DNA from: an uncultured Gammaproteobacteria bacterium
GTDB lineage: Bacteria; Patescibacteriota; Patescibacteriia; UBA1558; 2-01-FULL-52-15
Reading direction: 5' to 3'
Length of the DNA: 64,000 nt
Assembly (NCBI GenBank): GCA_964402565.1
Contig: CAYOCJ010000002.1
Coordinates: 170,982-234,981, forward strand
The notes below the pieces were generated by a model that was not told the DNA's origin, did no database searches, and was given only the letters and a program-made list of their open reading frames with translations. Shown here one piece after another: positions 4,716 through 31,315 of this stretch. A program made the position numbers and the translations under genes. Position 1 is the stretch's first letter, and each line of letters starts with the position of its first letter.

Positions 4716-5960
4716 TTATTTTAACACAGATAGTAATACTTTAAGTGCTGTTTTTTCAGTATCGATACCGGGGTGAACTGCTCGCAGCTCACGCAGCACA
4801 GTATCGATTTTGCCGTCTATGCGAGTCCACGCCGCCGGATCTTTTGGTTTCAATCGCGCTTCAGAAGTATCCCATTCGTATTCTAAATCACTGATGCGAG
4901 CTGTCGCTCCGGATTGGTTTCCTAGATTGAGGAGATCGAGAGTATCCTGTGTAATTGTTGTAAATGAGGAAAGATCACCCAGTGGCGACGATAGCGCAGG
5001 AGTTGAAGTGGCTGTAGCAGCAACAGGCTGTGCAGTCGTTTCATCGCCTTGTAAGTCCGACTGGCGCATATGGTATCCGATAAGCCCCGCGAGCACCAGT
5101 ACCGTAACCACGATCGCGGTTTGCAATAAGCCGCTTCTGCTTTGATCTGCAACGATTTCTTCAGCAACCTCTTCCTTTGTTTCTTTTTCAATACGATCTT
5201 TCTTTGATAGAGAGAGGTAGGCAACTATTCCCAGAATACCCCCGACGAAAATAAAGCTCGTGATAGTTGCGCCAAGACCTAATCCGCCATATTTCGGCGG
5301 CTGAGAAAGGTAATCTCCTATCGATGCCCCGAGCGGTCTGGTCAAAATATAGATCATCCAGAAAGAGAGGACATGGTTCATTTTCAGCTTCCAGCCGATC
5401 GCGAAAGCGGCGATGAGACCGGCGATGATGAAGCCAGTCGTTGCGTAGCCAAGACCAAGCCCTTCAGCCATAAGGTCCCCTGCAGCAGTACCGAGCGCAA
5501 AAGTAAACAGAATGGTGAGCCAGTAAAATGCTTCGCGCCTTGATGTAACAATCGAGTGTATCGAGAGTGTTTTTTCAAAGTAGTACCAAATAAGGAACGT
5601 TGCTGCCAAAAGAATACTGAAAACAATGGTGCTCGTTTCAAGCGGCACGCCGATCTTGTCGGTCAGGTTATCGGTGACCAGCGTTCCGAAGACGCTGATG
5701 AACATGACAGAAAGCCAATACGTGACTGGAATATACCTTTTTGCCTTAAACTGAAACAACAAAGCTAATGCGAGCGCTACCCCGGTAACAATGGATGTAC
5801 CGGTAAGTCCGAAATTTAGATTGACATTTAAGTAATCGGCTGCCGTTTCCCCGACGGTCGTGCACATAACCTTGATGAACCAGAACCAGAGGGTGATCTC
5901 TGGGACTTTGTTGAGCATGTGGCGTAACTTTGTATCGGAAGATTGAACTGGGGAGGACAT
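4716..5960 (-). CDS. polytopic membrane protein, COG4705-like (repeated TxGExxxD motifs)
   Basis: WFWFIKVMCTTVGETAADYL plus later GTAAGDL and GASIGDYL repeats, as in the uncharacterised membrane-anchored protein family. C-terminal soluble domain. The exact start is ambiguous among 5960, 5972 and 5996. Confidence 0.5.
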   Translation of the reverse strand: MSSPVQSSDTKLRHMLNKVPEITLWFWFIKVMCTTVGETAADYLNVNLNFGLTGTSIVTGVALALALLFQFKAKRYIPVTYWLSVMFISVFGTLVTDNLTDKIGVPLETSTIVFSILLAATFLIWYYFEKTLSIHSIVTSRREAFYWLTILFTFALGTAAGDLMAEGLGLGYATTGFIIAGLIAAFAIGWKLKMNHVLSFWMIYILTRPLGASIGDYLSQPPKYGGLGLGATITSFIFVGGILGIVAYLSLSKKDRIEKETKEEVAEEIVADQSRSGLLQTAIVVTVLVLAGLIGYHMRQSDLQGDETTAQPVAATATSTPALSSPLGDLSSFTTITQDTLDLLNLGNQSGATARISDLEYEWDTSEARLKPKDPAAWTRIDGKIDTVLRELRAVHPGIDTEKTALKVLLSVLK

Positions 5961-6030
5961 ATAATCTAGCATAGAACAAAAAAATGATTTGCACAAAGAA
6001 TCATTTTTTCAGTCATCGGCCGAATTATTC

Positions 6031-6049
6031 TGGCGGAGACGGGAGGATT
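6031..6049 (-). repeat. 19-bp direct repeat of the 3' end of tRNA-Ser (att-like remnant)
   Basis: tggcggagacgggaggatt is identical to 10099-10117, the T-arm through CCA of the tRNA-Ser gene, and has the same orientation. Confidence 0.7.
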
Positions 6050-6176
6050 TTCGCCTCGCGGCGTACTCGCCGCTTCGTTGCCAGGGGCAGCGCCTAAAGC
6101 TTCATATCCTTCGCTTCAGCCGGCGCTCTCCGCCCAGGGCGGATCGCTGCTGCCCGTTCGAATCCTTTATCTGATT

Positions 6177-6437
6177 ATTGCTTTCCGTACTCATCTTCGA
6201 TGAGTCCAGAAAACAATGGCGGTCCTTTTTGGACGAAGTTCGAACGTTTTTTAATGAAAATCCCGATGCTGAATTCTGATGCGCGCCGCCTGTGGCGGCG
6301 CGGGGTCAAATTTGCCCATCCAAAACTCACTCTAGCAAAAAGAGATACACAAGGCTAGCGCCCAGCCGTCAGGCCTGACGGCTGGGCGGGAAGGAAAAAA
6401 TGCGCGGCGACAGGGGTTCAAGGGGATGTCGCCGCGC
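6177..6437. repeat. left arm of a 261-bp inverted repeat (IR-L) with three GC-rich hairpins
   Basis: By-eye alignment shows 6177-6437 is the exact reverse complement of 9839-10099. It contains the palindromes cgcgccgcc-tgt-ggcggcgcg, gcccagccgtcagg|cctgacggctgggc and gcgcggcgaca-loop-tgtcgccgcgc. Confidence 0.85.
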
Positions 6438-6471
6438 GTCCAGTACAAGATGATAAAGGTTTCACTATCTG

Positions 6472-7482
6472 TCAACGGTCTGGATAGGGTGCATTCTTTT
6501 GACTTTTCGCTTTCTCAGCAATCCCTGAAAAGAGATGACTGATTTTTGCTGCAGTCAGGATAAAAATGAGTAGATTAATAGCTATGAGTGCTACGCTAAT
6601 TATAGCAAGTGCATCCACAGCTACGGATCTCGATATAATGAGTAGATAATGAACGAGGGGTGCGGTAGGGTCTTCGCGCAGTTCTTCAGAAAATAGACGA
6701 AGTACAAAATTGTATGGGCCATAGTGTATAGCTGCAAGAATGGCGGCTCCAAGTGCTACCCAGAATAAACTTTGCAATGAGATAATTGCTTGGAGACGTG
6801 TATTTTTTGTCGATTTCGGGACATTGACGACTTGTAATTTGAGCTGTGCGATCGTTAGATCAGCGACCATGCCTATGCGTTGCCGTAGACCATGGATAAG
6901 GCCGTATTTTTTTTCTTTTATAACCTGCGATAGGCCTTTAATGATAGTGTATCGATAGCCTTTACCATAGTACTGTGCATAAAAATTAAGACCTGCTTCA
7001 ATACGGAAACCACGTTTGTAATACGGCGGGAGCATCTGCCAAAGTTTTTTAGTAATGGCGCGCTCACCACCAAGGAGTGGCACAAATACCATGATATTGT
7101 GTAAGGCATAGATTTTTCTATTACGCATTGCTATGAACATATCAACGGTACCATCCAGAACCGGCTCTACTAGTGTAGTTACCATTGTGTGTGTGAGCCC
7201 AGATATATCAGCATCAATAAAAAGTATGATATCAGTTCGTGCGAGGCTGACGGCTATGTCCATAGCATGACCCTTGCCTTGATTTGTAGAGAGTCTGATA
7301 TATCGCACGGAATATTTTTGTGTAATTTCCTCAGTTCTATCAGTCGATCCGTCATCAACAACAATAACCTCATAAAAACCTGGGTAGGTCGTCAGCACAC
7401 TAAGAACAGCGCCTATGCGTTGCGCCTCATTGTATGCAGGAACAATGGCGGTTACTTTTTTTCCAGTTTCTTCTCCAACCAT
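6472..7482 (-). CDS. family-2 glycosyltransferase (polyprenyl-phosphate sugar transferase, DPM1/GtrB-like) with a C-terminal TM tail
   Basis: GT-A fold motifs are AIVPAYNEA, VIVVDDGSTD and the DAD triad in FIDADISG. Two to three C-terminal TM helices, as in GtrB/ArnC. Confidence 0.8.
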   Translation of the reverse strand: MVGEETGKKVTAIVPAYNEAQRIGAVLSVLTTYPGFYEVIVVDDGSTDRTEEITQKYSVRYIRLSTNQGKGHAMDIAVSLARTDIILFIDADISGLTHTMVTTLVEPVLDGTVDMFIAMRNRKIYALHNIMVFVPLLGGERAITKKLWQMLPPYYKRGFRIEAGLNFYAQYYGKGYRYTIIKGLSQVIKEKKYGLIHGLRQRIGMVADLTIAQLKLQVVNVPKSTKNTRLQAIISLQSLFWVALGAAILAAIHYGPYNFVLRLFSEELREDPTAPLVHYLLIISRSVAVDALAIISVALIAINLLIFILTAAKISHLFSGIAEKAKSQKNAPYPDR

Positions 7483-8057
7483 AGGGTGACGGATTTAAAT
7501 AAAATAACAATAGCTACAACGACTACTAAGGTATACTCGGTCTTGTGCAGGACAGGAAACAAGTTTTTTGTACTACTCCCTGCGAGCCAGCCGATGGTAA
7601 GCATGACATGCAGCCATATCATCGTGCCTAGTGTGTCAAAAATAACGAAGGTCCAGAAGCCTATTTTCCTGACGGAAAGGTATAGAATGGTCAGAATTCT
7701 GGTACCGTACAGAAATTTGATAAACAATAAGACCAAAAATGGTTTGTGGCCTGTTATCGTCTCAAACCGCTTCAGAAGCGCTTGGTATTTAATTTGTTTT
7801 TCATCCCACGAATGTATGCGCTTAAATAACGTCTGGCCGAATAAAAACCATAGGCTGTCTGAAATCACCGTGCCTGCAAGCGCGAGCCAGAATACTGCGG
7901 AGATGGACCAGATCCCTTGACCTGCGAGAAAAGCGGCTGTGATAATTACAGTCTCACCGAAAAAGAAGGCCCCAATGAAAATAGCCGGCAGCTGGTATGT
8001 GAGTAGCAGTGATGTAATGAGGGGATGTATAGATTTATATATTTGATGATTTAGAAA
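7452..8057 (-). CDS. DedA/VTT-family membrane protein (no canonical start codon; frame continues from the PAP2 gene across a TGA)
   Basis: Conserved DedA core FGETVIITAAFLAGQG plus downstream TM helices. The ORF track calls only 7452..7868 from a GTG. The in-frame region back to the TGA at 8058-8060 is open and encodes the DedA N-terminal helix. Confidence 0.55.
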   Translation of the reverse strand, partial: FLNHQIYKSIHPLITSLLLTYQLPAIFIGAFFFGETVIITAAFLAGQGIWSISAVFWLALAGTVISDSLWFLFGQTLFKRIHSWDEKQIKYQALLKRFETITGHKPFLVLLFIKFLYGTRILTILYLSVRKIGFWTFVIFDTLGTMIWLHVMLTIGWLAGSSTKNLFPVLHKTEYTLVVVVAIVILFKSVTLWLEKKLEKK

Positions 8058-9728
8058 TCATTGCAGCCATAGGATGTACGCTTTACCGTCGGTAAAAAAG
8101 GAATCACCAGATGCATTGATGCCTCGAGTTGGCCGGACTATGTCGAGTTTTGTATGTTCAGAAACCATGTGGGTAGCAATAAGTTCTTGGAAAATTTTTT
8201 CTCGTTCACGGTCAATGTCAGGATCAATCCTGTGTGTCGGTAGGGGAATTTTTGAGCCAATCTCGATGCCATTATCCAAACTGGCTGTCCCAACCCATAA
8301 GGGGCGACCGTCGACAGAATACTGAGTTTTCCAAAAGCGTGCATGGTGTCTCCGTCGTGCGGTTGCATCATCGGTTAGTTGTTTTTCAAACCCCAGGTCA
8401 TTGGCTGTGGTATTGTAAAACGCCGGTGTCATAGGACCAGATGCGTACATGACATTTCTCGCAATTGCCGAAAGCTCGTGTATGACATTACTGAAGTTTA
8501 CGAGATCAGCCAAGTGCCACCCTGCTTGATTAAAGGTGTTGATAATTTGATTTTGTTCACCCAGGATGAGGAAGCTTAAGGGTTCCATGTTTTCTCCAAG
8601 CAGATTTTCACTGTATCTTGGTTCATGTTCAATAAAATCTTGTAGAGTGATAGCTCGAGTCGCAATGTTAGGTGTTATGATTGTTGTGCCATGGGCAGTA
8701 GTATATATACTGCCTAGCGGCACGAAGGTAAGTAATAAAGTTATTACCTTGGATGCTAGAGAAATTTTTTTTCGCGATGTGCTCACGGGCACCTGGAAGT
8801 TAATCTCATATCCAGCAATGGCGATCGTAAGGATTAGCAAACCGAGGTACCAGCCAGCAATAACGTCGCTGGGATAATGAACCCCAAGGTAGATACGACT
8901 GATACCGATGGCTGTGACAAGAAGAAAAAAAGCAGCAATGGTCAGTGCTTTATACCAAACACTACGAACCCGCTTGATAATGAGGTAACTGATAAAACCA
9001 TAGAGACAAATTGCTATGACCGCGTGTCCACTAGGAAAGCTGAATGACGGTGGAAGTGTAATAAGATTTAGGCCAGCGGGTCGGGGACGGTGACCGATCC
9101 ACTTTGTCAACCAGTAGGCACTATATCCTGACCCGACTGATAGTATAAAATAACGAATTACGCTATAGTCTTTATCCATAAGCAAATAAACAAGAGTAAT
9201 TGCAGAAACGAGGAGTACGGTACTGGTATTTGCAAAAGTGGTGATATAGATGAACAAGGACGCATAGCGGGGCGAGATAAAGGCTTGTATGAGGTGAATC
9301 GTTCTTGCATCGGCGAGGTACAAAGGATCCTTGAGTAGAATATCAAAAACTATAATAGTAAATTGAATAAGAAAAAACCCAGCGATAAAAGCACAAATTG
9401 TTGTATACAGTCCTGATGGAAAATTTTTGTCGAGTCTTTTTTTCAAAAAAAAGTACGTACGTGGCCATCGTGATTGAGTTGCTGCTAGGCTTTTTTGCCA
9501 AACACGAGTATGAGCGATACTATGTCCTAGGCTTGAGAGTATTTGGAGAAGTGTTTCTCTCTTTCTGAAAATCCAGACTGAAAATAATCCAATGCATGTA
9601 GACAGGGCGGTTGCGAGAATGAGGACGGCAGCAAGCCCGAGGCCCCAATAACTAAAGTATACAAACAGCTCAAATGATGCATAGATAAATCCAAGAACGG
9701 TCGCAGTGATGAAAATTTTTTTGGCCAT
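8058..9728 (-). CDS. PAP2 lipid phosphatase (BcrC/PgpB-like) with a C-terminal LssY_C-like domain
   Basis: PAP2 motifs are KX6RP (GHRPRPAG), PSGH (FPSGHA) and SRX5HX3D (ISRIYLGVHYPSDV) within 10+ TM helices. The ~230-aa C-terminal soluble extension resembles the LssY C-terminal domain. Confidence 0.8.
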   Translation of the reverse strand: MAKKIFITATVLGFIYASFELFVYFSYWGLGLAAVLILATALSTCIGLFSVWIFRKRETLLQILSSLGHSIAHTRVWQKSLAATQSRWPRTYFFLKKRLDKNFPSGLYTTICAFIAGFFLIQFTIIVFDILLKDPLYLADARTIHLIQAFISPRYASLFIYITTFANTSTVLLVSAITLVYLLMDKDYSVIRYFILSVGSGYSAYWLTKWIGHRPRPAGLNLITLPPSFSFPSGHAVIAICLYGFISYLIIKRVRSVWYKALTIAAFFLLVTAIGISRIYLGVHYPSDVIAGWYLGLLILTIAIAGYEINFQVPVSTSRKKISLASKVITLLLTFVPLGSIYTTAHGTTIITPNIATRAITLQDFIEHEPRYSENLLGENMEPLSFLILGEQNQIINTFNQAGWHLADLVNFSNVIHELSAIARNVMYASGPMTPAFYNTTANDLGFEKQLTDDATARRRHHARFWKTQYSVDGRPLWVGTASLDNGIEIGSKIPLPTHRIDPDIDREREKIFQELIATHMVSEHTKLDIVRPTRGINASGDSFFTDGKAYILWLQ

Positions 9729-9838
9729 AGTGCTATTCTAGCAAAGAAAAGGAGTTATAAATAGCATAGTGTTCATGCAATCGTTGTTAGAATGTCCTAC
9801 ACCAATACCCGTTTCCATAGTATTTTAGAATGCTCAAG

Positions 9839-10099
9839 GCGCGGCGACATCCCCTTGAACCCCTGTCGCCGCGCATTTTTTCCTTCCCGCCCAGCCGTCA
9901 GGCCTGACGGCTGGGCGCTAGCCTTGTGTATCTCTTTTTGCTAGAGTGAGTTTTGGATGGGCAAATTTGACCCCGCGCCGCCACAGGCGGCGCGCATCAG
10001 AATTCAGCATCGGGATTTTCATTAAAAAACGTTCGAACTTCGTCCAAAAAGGACCGCCATTGTTTTCTGGACTCATCGAAGATGAGTACGGAAAGCAAT
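9839..10099. repeat. right arm of the 261-bp inverted repeat (IR-R), abutting the tRNA-Ser 3' end
   Basis: Reverse complement of 6177-6437. Its last base is shared with the first encoded base of the tRNA CCA end. Confidence 0.85.
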
Positions 10100-10189
10100 G
10101 GCGGAGACGGGAGGATTCGAACCTCCGAGACCCTTTGGGGGTCTAACGCTTTTCGAGAGCGCCCCGTTCAACCACTCTGGCACGTCTCC
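10099..10189 (-). tRNA. tRNA-Ser (anticodon CGA), CCA encoded
   Basis: Cloverleaf with acceptor GGAGACG/CGTCTCC. Anticodon stem GCGCU/AGCGU with loop CUCGAAA (U33, CGA, A37). Long variable arm GACCC/GGGUC and T-arm GGAGG-TTCGAAT-CCTCC. Confidence 0.9.
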
Positions 10190-10226
10190 ATCCGCGCTTA
10201 GTATACTTATTTCTTGTATTTTTTCA

Positions 10227-11069
10227 ATGCAGAGGCTCTTTATGGTATACTATGCATATCACACTATGACCATTACGTATCCCAAGGGTGACAGTGACTC
10301 ATCAGCCAACCTGAATCCGCCCGCAAGCGCATCGCATCTGACCGCCGTAGCAATTGCGGTAAGCATCGTCTTCCTCGTTGTCGCTGCAGGCTTGTGGTAT
10401 GGCTTTTCGCAATCAAAAAAAGCTGTCGAATCCGTTCCTGCTGCGGTCATTCCGCTGCCTGCATCGCCTGCAGTGGAAGGAGCGCGCGTGTATGAGGCGA
10501 TCGATGGATTACAGCAATGTCAAAAGAATACTCCTGATCTGAACACGGCTGACGCACAGAAGAAGAGGCAGAATTGCTATTATGCGGTCATGACAATTTT
10601 TGCAACATCATCTATTTGCAATATCATTGCATTGGACGGCAGCAGCTCAGATCTTTGCAAGCAAGCAGAAGCCCGTTTCATCAAGGATTATCCGAACGGC
10701 ATACCGAAAACGGATATACCGCTAGTCGGTGCAAAGACAAATGCAAATTCAAATCCCTCCGTTCCTGGCTCCGGCGGTTCGGCAGGGTTAGGCACGAAAG
10801 GTAGCACTGGATCCACCGGCGGTAGCGGAGGGATAAACTCGAATACGAACACGCAATCTAATACAAATACCGGCTCGCAGAACACGAATACCAACTCAAC
10901 AAGCAATGCGAATACTTCCGGCAATACTAATACTGCGGGCAATTCCAATAGTTCGACCAGCCAAAACAGCAATAACAACAGCAATCAGAACGAAACATCA
11001 AATGATCTGCCCCCATGCCTGAATGACGGTGGTGAGCCGACCTTGTTGCAGCATACCAACTGCCAATAG
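10227..11069 (+). CDS. membrane-anchored protein with an Asn/Thr/Ser/Gly-rich low-complexity C-terminal tail
   Basis: Single TM (LTAVAIAVSIVFLVVAAGLWYGF), then NTNTQSNTNTGSQNTNTNST... Start taken at an ATG downstream of the tRNA (10227 or 10266). The ORF-track start at 10098 overlaps the tRNA and is rejected. Confidence 0.5.
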   Translation: MQRLFMVYYAYHTMTITYPKGDSDSSANLNPPASASHLTAVAIAVSIVFLVVAAGLWYGFSQSKKAVESVPAAVIPLPASPAVEGARVYEAIDGLQQCQKNTPDLNTADAQKKRQNCYYAVMTIFATSSICNIIALDGSSSDLCKQAEARFIKDYPNGIPKTDIPLVGAKTNANSNPSVPGSGGSAGLGTKGSTGSTGGSGGINSNTNTQSNTNTGSQNTNTNSTSNANTSGNTNTAGNSNSSTSQNSNNNSNQNETSNDLPPCLNDGGEPTLLQHTNCQ

Positions 11070-30400: not shown

Positions 30401-31315
30401 GCGGATAAGTTTCTTTTTCTTCGATGGAATGCAGGTCGCGATCTCTTTATCCAGTTCCTTGGCGAGCTGCTTCAGGTCGAGTTCGGTAAGCAGCATGCGG
30501 ATAGCTTCTGCGCCGATGCGCGCTTCGAAGACGTGGCCGTACTTCAGGGACAGGTCCTGGTAGGCATTTTCAGAAATAATGCTTTTTACCTGCAAGCTCT
30601 TCAGCTCCTTCTTTGCAATATCAGCAGCTGTATCTAAATGAGTGAGCTTCTCGATTTTCTGAGCATTGAGGCTTACGATCGCATCGTTGGTCTGCTTTTC
30701 GATCGTTTCTGCTTTTTTGCCTGATTGCAGAGCTTGTGATTTCTTGCCTTGTATTTCGCTGATCTTATGTTCGATCTCAGCTTCGATCTGCTTGCGCTTT
30801 CCTTTCAGCTCATCCTGGATCTGCTGCAGCGTTTCTTCGCGGGCAGGCTCGTCTACTTCGGTGATGATGAAACTCGCAAAGTAAATGATCTTTTCAAGCT
30901 CTTGTACCGAGAGGTCAAGCACCAGGCCGATCTTTGACGGAATGCCACGGAGGAACCAGATATGCGAGACCGGCGTGGCAAGGTCAATGTGCGCCATGCG
31001 TTCGCGTCGTACAATGGAACGGGTGACTTCAACGCCGCATTTGTCGCAGATAATTCCTTTGTAGCGGATCTTCTTATATTTGCCGCAATAGCATTCCCAG
31101 TCCTTTGACGGACCGAAAATTTTCTCGCAGAAAAGTCCGTCACGCTCAGGCTTCTGAGTGCGGTAATTGATGGTTTCAGGGGAGAGTACTTCGCCATGAG
31201 ACCATTTATGCATGATATCAGGGCTTGCAACCTTCAGCCGGATCGAGTCAAAGTCCAGAGTCTTGGTAGGCTCTTGTGACATGAAGGTTGTTTTGGTCGA
31301 TGATGGTGTAGACAT
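27437..31315 (-). CDS. rpoC: DNA-directed RNA polymerase subunit beta'
   Basis: 1292 aa. Zn-finger [23 protein letters not shown], catalytic [12 protein letters not shown], and the trigger loop/bridge helix region. Confidence 0.97.

Follow-up and report, generated by a model that had tools for sequence, protein, structure and literature searches.

Introduction

DedA-family membrane proteins of COG0586 include undecaprenyl-phosphate flippases such as UptA of Bacillus subtilis and Staphylococcus aureus and YghB of Vibrio cholerae. Fusions of DedA with PAP2 phosphatase domains are also documented and have been used to argue that DedA takes part in the recycling of undecaprenyl phosphate (PMC9876793, PMC10127716). 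Here we describe a DedA gene in a stretch of 64,000 nucleotides (nt) from an uncultured bacterium (contig CAYOCJ010000002.1 of assembly GCA_964402565.1, positions 170,982 to 234,981; this whole stretch is the window, and all coordinates refer to it). The gene follows a PAP2-LssY_C membrane phosphatase gene in the same reading frame across a single TGA, with no canonical start codon ahead of its conserved domain. By comparison with homologous sequences, these are two separate genes: a PAP2-LssY_C gene with its native stop, and an independent DedA gene with its start at 8030–8028. The DedA gene most likely carries an ATG-to-ATA substitution at that start and is either weakly translated from AUA or has very recently lost its start.

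The window DedA belongs to the same Pfam family as the COG0586 flippases and, like them, has neighbours that would act on polyprenyl-phosphate-type lipids. Its similarity to the NCBIfam UptA model is weak (NF052605, 20.9 bits against a cutoff of 300), and it is not an UptA equivalog. The natural fusions, exemplified by P0172 (Methylomirabilales), P0200 (Moranbacteria) and P0210 (Xanthomonadaceae), bring the same three domains together at one locus as the window does; they do so in one polypeptide with the DedA (VTT) domain N-terminal, whereas in the window the domains are divided between two genes and their order is reversed. Stand-alone DedA proteins of the Candidate Phyla Radiation (CPR)/Patescibacteria resemble the window protein in their length of ~192 amino acids (aa), an identity of 55–70% and the same N-terminal helix (P0001, P0003, P0007, P0009, annotated as 'hypothetical protein UW86_C0015G0003, Microgenomates', and P0018 from Zambryskibacteria). 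Their loci likewise have a family 2 glycosyltransferase (GT2) gene downstream, with a 31-nt overlap in close relatives, but their start codon is ATG, or GTG in two loci, instead of ATA, and no PAP2-LssY_C gene precedes them.

Codons one base from AUG are found at initiation sites in described systems as they are here. Escherichia coli infC uses an AUU start, and regulated starts of the infC type are conserved across species, whereas the window ATA occurs in a single genome only, and no regulatory logic is known for it. AUA itself, placed at the initiation site of E. coli reporters, gave 1–2% of AUG activity in a first screen and 0.02–3% in other constructs (bioRxiv 10.1101/063800).

Results and Discussion

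Organization of the PAP2–DedA junction

The minus strand carries all three genes of interest, encoding PAP2+LssY_C, DedA and GT2. The PAP2+LssY_C gene (9728–8058, 556 aa) ends at TGA 8060–8058, and its frame continues open from 8057 to TAA 7454–7452, a run of 201 codons. Between the TGA and GTG 7868–7866, which is codon 64 after the stop, this frame contains no ATG, GTG or TTG; the GTG is thus the first canonical in-frame start and would yield a 138-aa product. Near-cognate codons in the start-less stretch include ATA 8042–8040, ATA 8030–8028, ATT 8018–8016 and CTG 8009–8007, among others. The conserved N-terminal helix of DedA begins at about codon 17 after the PAP2 stop and the FGETVIITAAFLAGQG motif at codon 33. 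The preliminary description of this locus had reported a DedA reading frame without a start codon, in frame with PAP2 across a single TGA, and with only a downstream GTG that would cut into the conserved domain. All of this is reproduced in the sequence, with a cost of 31 VTT residues for a start at GTG 7868; the distance from the stop to the DedA core, given there as about 25 codons, is corrected by the measured 33.

The ATA codon at 8030–8028 lies 23 codons ahead of the FGE motif. Counted from it, the DedA/VTT-family gene spans 8030–7452 and comprises 192 codons plus TAA (7454–7452). The PAP2 stop is separated from this codon by an AT-rich spacer of 27 nt (8057–8031, minus strand; TTTCTAAATCATCAAATATATAAATCT, read directly), which has 4 G/C bases and whose translation shows no conservation in an alignment with DedA homologs. 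A scan of the minus strand found no terminator-like site between PAP2 and DedA. The sharing of one frame by PAP2 and DedA is not statistically remarkable: it has a 1-in-3 chance, 9 codons separate the TGA from the ancestral DedA start, and relatives have 1 to 56 codons of open frame ahead of their own DedA starts.

A contig from an independent Logan assembly (SRR12313480, reported in 2 samples) corresponds to window positions 9868–6408. It matches the window at every one of these 3461 nt, the TGA and the ATA among them. In its gene calls, PAP2 and GT2 are present and the 576-nt DedA stretch between them is left uncalled.

The DedA start position in relatives

DedA loci of relatives were gathered by DNA pattern, independently of gene calls, so that start-less genes would be kept. 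From the closest relatives, 3 distinct contigs were compared alongside 21 usable genome loci and 6 metagenome loci. A canonical start is present in all of them, ATG except for GTG in loci L038 and L019. These starts lie mostly 23–25 codons ahead of the FGE motif, with 23 the commonest spacing, the same as that of the window ATA. In the protein alignment, the homologs' Met falls on the window Ile encoded by ATA 8030–8028, and the residues that follow are similar: the window reads I-H-P-L-I where P0007 reads M-H-D-L-I, the His codon being CAT in the window and CAC in P0007. The window is therefore the sole exception among ~30 DedA loci, and it differs from the family state by one transition (ATG to ATA; plus strand C to T at 8028). 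Because the ATG has changed to ATA, no ATG, GTG or TTG is usable, and gene callers leave a gap.

An unusual start, one of the options raised when the locus was first described, holds in a specific form, with ATA exactly where the family has ATG. The homologs have a conserved independent DedA start of their own, a plain ATG, and no Shine-Dalgarno motif was seen in those sequences 5' of it that were read by eye. To look for ATG variants, metagenomes of the Joint Genome Institute (JGI) were scanned for the exact window pattern with the variable base left as N, and no match was returned. A protein-guided metagenome scan recovered only relatives that are at most 54% identical, each of which has a canonical start.

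An intact DedA coding body

Pfam places a VTT/DedA domain at residues 34–157 of the post-stop frame (46.5 bits, cutoff 33.9), covering positions 3–122 of the 123-position model. The homolog search gave 203 matches, the best of which are 55–70% identical over 94–96% of the query. Among the 120 homologs listed, lengths range from 161 to 263 aa and are mostly ~192 aa, PF09335 is the only domain, and query coverage is mostly 92–96%. The window DedA reads without internal stop or frameshift through its 192 codons, and it agrees with 40 of the 41 columns that are invariant in 21 homologs and with 70 of the 71 columns conserved to at least 90%. Moreover, the DedA/GT2 identity ratio is 1.14 for pairs including the window against 1.04 for other pairs, so the window DedA is diverging no faster than its neighbour GT2. 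On these coding features an old pseudogene is excluded for DedA, while a very recent loss of the start would be compatible with them.

The AlphaFold2 model of the protein is all-helical, with 9 helices, a mean predicted local distance difference test (pLDDT) score of 72.6 and a predicted template modelling (pTM) score of 0.62. A tblastn search found no second DedA copy in the window, one that might have rendered this gene dispensable.

The PAP2-LssY_C stop

The PAP2 protein has Pfam matches to PAP2 (69.6 bits, aa 193–305) and LssY_C (143.3 bits, aa 370–549). The LssY_C model is matched over positions 5–187 of 188, and the match ends 7 aa ahead of the stop. When C-termini are aligned, the window's last column is also the end of 54 of 120 PAP2-LssY_C homologs, and 93 of the 120 stop no more than one residue from it. 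The homologs thus place TGA 8060–8058 as the native end of the PAP2 protein. The same codon ends 11 of the 40 long open reading frames (ORFs) in the window, including PAP2 and GT2, where the homologs of each also end, and under table 11 two ORFs, 1292 and 1113 aa long, contain no interruption. Genome-wide recoding of TGA (codes 4 or 25) is ruled out by this stop-codon usage and the intact long ORFs.

The base after the TGA is T, which in E. coli makes for strong termination. A 91-nt segment that includes the TGA and what follows it folds at -7.2 kcal/mol, no better than shuffled sequences (z = 0.06), and an Rfam search over 5800–10400 returned only a tRNA-Ser and two matches far under their gathering scores. 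A structure of the selenocysteine insertion sequence (SECIS) type, or any other readthrough-stimulating structure, is rejected on the shuffle-level fold and the lack of a relevant Rfam match.

Against the NCBIfam undecaprenyl-diphosphatase equivalogs of SepP, PgpB and YbjG type, the protein scores 35.4, 31.3 and 24.1 bits, far below the respective cutoffs of 250, 261 and 229. Its closest PAP2-LssY_C relative (L034 583–2256, GCA_041643095.1, 53% identity) has the gene in two pieces, a 448-aa ORF and, 7 nt from it, a 106-aa fragment of LssY_C, probably owing to a frameshift or an assembly error.

DedA pairs with GT2 rather than with PAP2 in relatives

The GT2 gene of the window (7482–6472, minus strand, 336 aa; Pfam Glycos_transf_2, 93.8 bits) has weak matches to dolichol-P-mannose synthase 5mlz and GtrB 5ekp, and its 5' end overlaps the 3' end of DedA by 31 nt. 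DedA is immediately followed by a GT2 gene in all three close relatives, where the gene calls overlap by 31 nt, and in 20 of 22 genome loci, with the two matches overlapping by up to ~28 nt in most of these loci. The start of GT2 31 nt inside DedA points to translational coupling and to a shared lipid-linked sugar pathway. A DedA of ~192 aa followed by a membrane GT2 of ~330 aa recurs as a two-gene unit across CPR-type genomes (L001–L029 and window 6472–8030), with hosts that include Microgenomates, Kerfeldbacteria, Magasanikbacteria, Saccharibacteria-labelled metagenome-assembled genomes and others. The names that these homologs carry suggest a place for the window in the Patescibacteria/CPR as well.

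PAP2, in contrast, lies upstream of DedA in none of the relatives' loci compared. The only PAP2 match near a relative's DedA is a weak one in L019, on the opposite strand and 2.7 kb off. Conversely, no DedA was found downstream of the closest PAP2-LssY_C homologs. In the closest full-length ones (41–43% identity), unrelated genes follow and a tyrosine recombinase gene precedes. From the loci compared, the PAP2–DedA juxtaposition is specific to this lineage, which rules out that a nonsense mutation disrupted an ancestral fusion.

The recombinase preceding these homologs is XerC/D-like (L030 2185–3138; L032 2289–3206; L033 1101–2018), and all three loci adjoin rpsO and pnp.

Natural fusions carry the domains in the reverse order

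Among the matches listed, about half of the PAP2-LssY_C homologs also carry VTT (PF09335), and these proteins are ~700 aa long. In 5 of 5 VTT-bearing proteins scanned the domain order is VTT (~37–160), PAP2 (~335–450) and LssY_C (~520–696). The fused VTT domain is a distant paralog of the window DedA, with 24% identity. VTT-PAP2-LssY_C proteins (P0134–P0240) are numerous and widespread, occurring in Methylomirabilales, Moranbacteria and Xanthomonadaceae, and LssY_C comes last in all that were scanned. Because natural fusions combine the same three domains, a functional link between the PAP2 phosphatase and the DedA transporter is supported.

These comparisons separate the claims made when the locus was first described. 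That the PAP2/DedA pairing is functionally meaningful, with associations noted in the literature, is borne out by the documented fusions (PMC9876793, PMC10127716). The proposed interruption of a PAP2-DedA fusion is not, since the homologs' ends and starts sit at the junction, the adjacency is unconserved and the known fusions are reversed. Programmed readthrough of the TGA fares no better, as PAP2 homologs end there, the TGA is an ordinary stop and no fold follows it. The suggested alignment with relatives likewise yielded no PAP2-LssY_C-DedA fusions: the DedA homologs are all stand-alone and the known fusions have VTT first.

Start architecture of the genome

A Shine-Dalgarno-like motif precedes only 3 of the 40 long ORFs in the window. 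Instead, T occupies position -1 at 26 of 36 ATG starts, and CT occupies positions -2/-1 at 16 of 36 (background 5.7%). The 36 starts include 14 with a TAnnnT box 9–20 nt upstream, compared with 13% of random positions. Additionally, -10-like TATACT, TAGAAT or TATAAT boxes often stand 5–12 nt before the ATG; one lies inside the 25-nt gap ahead of the 1292-aa ORF at 31315, and a TAGAAT stands 6 nt ahead of the ATG of the PAP2 gene. This arrangement suggests that leaderless or very short-leader mRNAs are the norm in this genome.

The ATA at 8030–8028 is preceded by TATATAAATCT, which gives it the CT context seen at other starts. An A+T-rich TATATA stands 5 nt ahead of the ATA and is not a TAnnnT box. 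A search for systematic use of non-canonical starts identified 9 long stop-to-stop frames with at least 40 open codons before the first canonical start; the 4 that were scanned had no Pfam match, and no case in favour of such use emerged.

Probable weak initiation at AUA and its alternatives

DedA is probably translated, weakly, from AUA. The initiator tRNA would begin the protein there by near-cognate initiation at a low level, so that the allele would be a hypomorph and not a fusion. If the genes share a transcript, DedA initiation may be aided by ribosomes that have just finished PAP2, whose stop lies 27 nt before the ATA. The outcome would depend on the transcript, as a single three-gene mRNA would permit reinitiation, while a leaderless DedA-GT2 mRNA would make AUA very poor.

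Several points weigh against weak translation from a substituted start. ATA starts are very rare among annotated bacteria. Near-cognate codons, including AUA, cut the translation of leaderless mRNA drastically (PMC8459731), and with starts that lack Shine-Dalgarno motifs and appear leaderless the ATA allele could therefore be effectively null. Moreover, searches of protein, genome and metagenome collections found no DedA relative more than 70% identical, and the Logan assembly may have been built from the same reads as the window.

The best-surviving rival, less likely but with an appreciable share of the probability, is a recent loss-of-start pseudogene, in which the ATG-to-ATA change silenced DedA and the null allele is fixed or segregating in a small, drift-prone genome with the ORF not yet decayed. 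This would fit a gene that has no canonical start, is skipped by gene callers and has no protein in a collection of 5.8 billion (the best match there is 70% identical). The window's position as the sole exception among the loci compared, and its Shine-Dalgarno-less, leaderless type of start, a setting in which AUA does very poorly, point the same way. Silencing sits less easily with the ORF itself, which is intact over 192 codons, keeps 40 of 41 invariant residues and shows no excess divergence relative to GT2. The GT2 start inside the DedA frame in nearly all relatives suggests coupled expression, which a null would disturb, and some AUA initiation is expected in any bacterium tested.

A stronger claim than weak translation is improbable, namely that the AUA, or the near-cognate cluster at 8042–8007, is a genuine selected start in a bacterium nearly devoid of Shine-Dalgarno motifs, and that DedA is made solely by ribosomes terminating on PAP2. 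If true, the amount of flippase would be tied to the amount of carrier pyrophosphatase, making the locus a two-gene, translationally coupled equivalent of the VTT-PAP2-LssY_C fusions.

A sequencing or consensus error, with ATG as the true codon of an ordinary gene, is very unlikely. The sequence is metagenome-assembled and one transition would restore the family state, but the Logan contig agrees at base 8028 as throughout its length, and a substitution error that dominates a short-read consensus is unusual.

Slighter still is the chance that translation starts at GTG 7868, the sole canonical start in frame, to give a truncated 138-aa DedA fragment. Such a start would drop residues 1–64 of the post-stop frame, which contain the first 31 residues, or first quarter, of the VTT domain. 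Invariant residues between F27 and T63 would be lost, among them G34 and E35 of the FGE motif, together with the first two core helices predicted (model helices 23–32 and 35–46, and part of 52–85). No homolog begins there, and the 55 codons from ATA to GTG show conservation at the protein level.

Least likely of these rivals is a 758-aa PAP2-LssY_C-DedA protein made by readthrough, by inserting selenocysteine or by reassigning TGA, or else an ancestral fusion of that order recently broken by nonsense: the frame is kept across a single stop and the domains are fused in many natural proteins, but those fusions run VTT-PAP2-LssY_C with a VTT domain 24% identical to the window DedA, LssY_C ends every protein scanned, no DedA homolog among the 120 listed exceeds 263 aa, the homologs of the two genes end and start exactly at this junction, the adjacency is unique to this genome, and the TGA is an ordinary stop here, with long ORFs intact in the window, T following it and no structure after it.

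Functional context and annotation

The three genes plausibly share a role in handling a polyprenyl-phosphate carrier lipid, as suggested by what is known of their families and by the natural fusions. In this scheme the carrier pyrophosphate would be dephosphorylated outside by PAP2, brought back as the monophosphate by DedA and charged with a sugar by GT2. PAP2-LssY_C, DedA and a membrane GT2 side by side add one more genomic association between DedA and polyprenyl-phosphate enzymes, a link already known through domain fusions.

A conserved, intact membrane-transporter gene is here missed by standard gene callers through one base, leaving an apparent gap of 576 nt that invites over-reading as a fusion or recoding event. 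An annotation fix is warranted, in which the DedA gene is entered at 8030–7452 with a non-canonical or mutated start. The initial observation was correct and has an ordinary explanation, which poses no challenge to current understanding. If AUA does initiate here, the locus would provide a small data point on start-codon stringency in CPR bacteria that lack Shine-Dalgarno motifs.

Inverted repeat and tRNA flanks of the three-gene block

A perfect inverted repeat of 261 nt brackets exactly the PAP2/DedA/GT2 block. Its left arm (6177–6437) is 100% complementary to its right arm (9839–10099), and 3401 nt lie between the two. The arms contain three G+C-rich hairpins, one of which is a 30-nt perfect palindrome that occurs nowhere else in the window. 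In each arm the Logan contig breaks off after 30 nt, the behaviour that a de Bruijn graph would show at a true repeat. Read on the minus strand, the left arm presents, directly beyond the GT2 stop, a G+C-rich hairpin followed by a T run, which was read by eye and is unreported by the hairpin scan. The three-gene block could be invertible or a rearrangement relic; no recombinase was found near the repeat among the ten flanking ORFs scanned.

The right arm abuts the 3' end of a tRNA-Ser(CGA) gene (10099–10189, minus strand). The longest ORF at this end (10098–11069, plus strand) opens within the tRNA-Ser gene, which is read from the other strand, so its first portion is probably spurious. Its remainder encodes a low-complexity protein rich in Asn, Ser, Thr and Gly, for which Pfam gives no match. 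A direct copy of the final 19 nt of the tRNA-Ser gene (TGGCGGAGACGGGAGGATT, plus strand; 10099–10117) lies 4 kb away at 6031–6049. The intervening segment (6050–10098) spans both repeat arms and all three genes, and its flanks resemble those of an element that has integrated at the 3' end of a tRNA gene, though it has no integrase; this tRNA-flanked, element-like arrangement may be why PAP2 and DedA are adjacent in this genome only.

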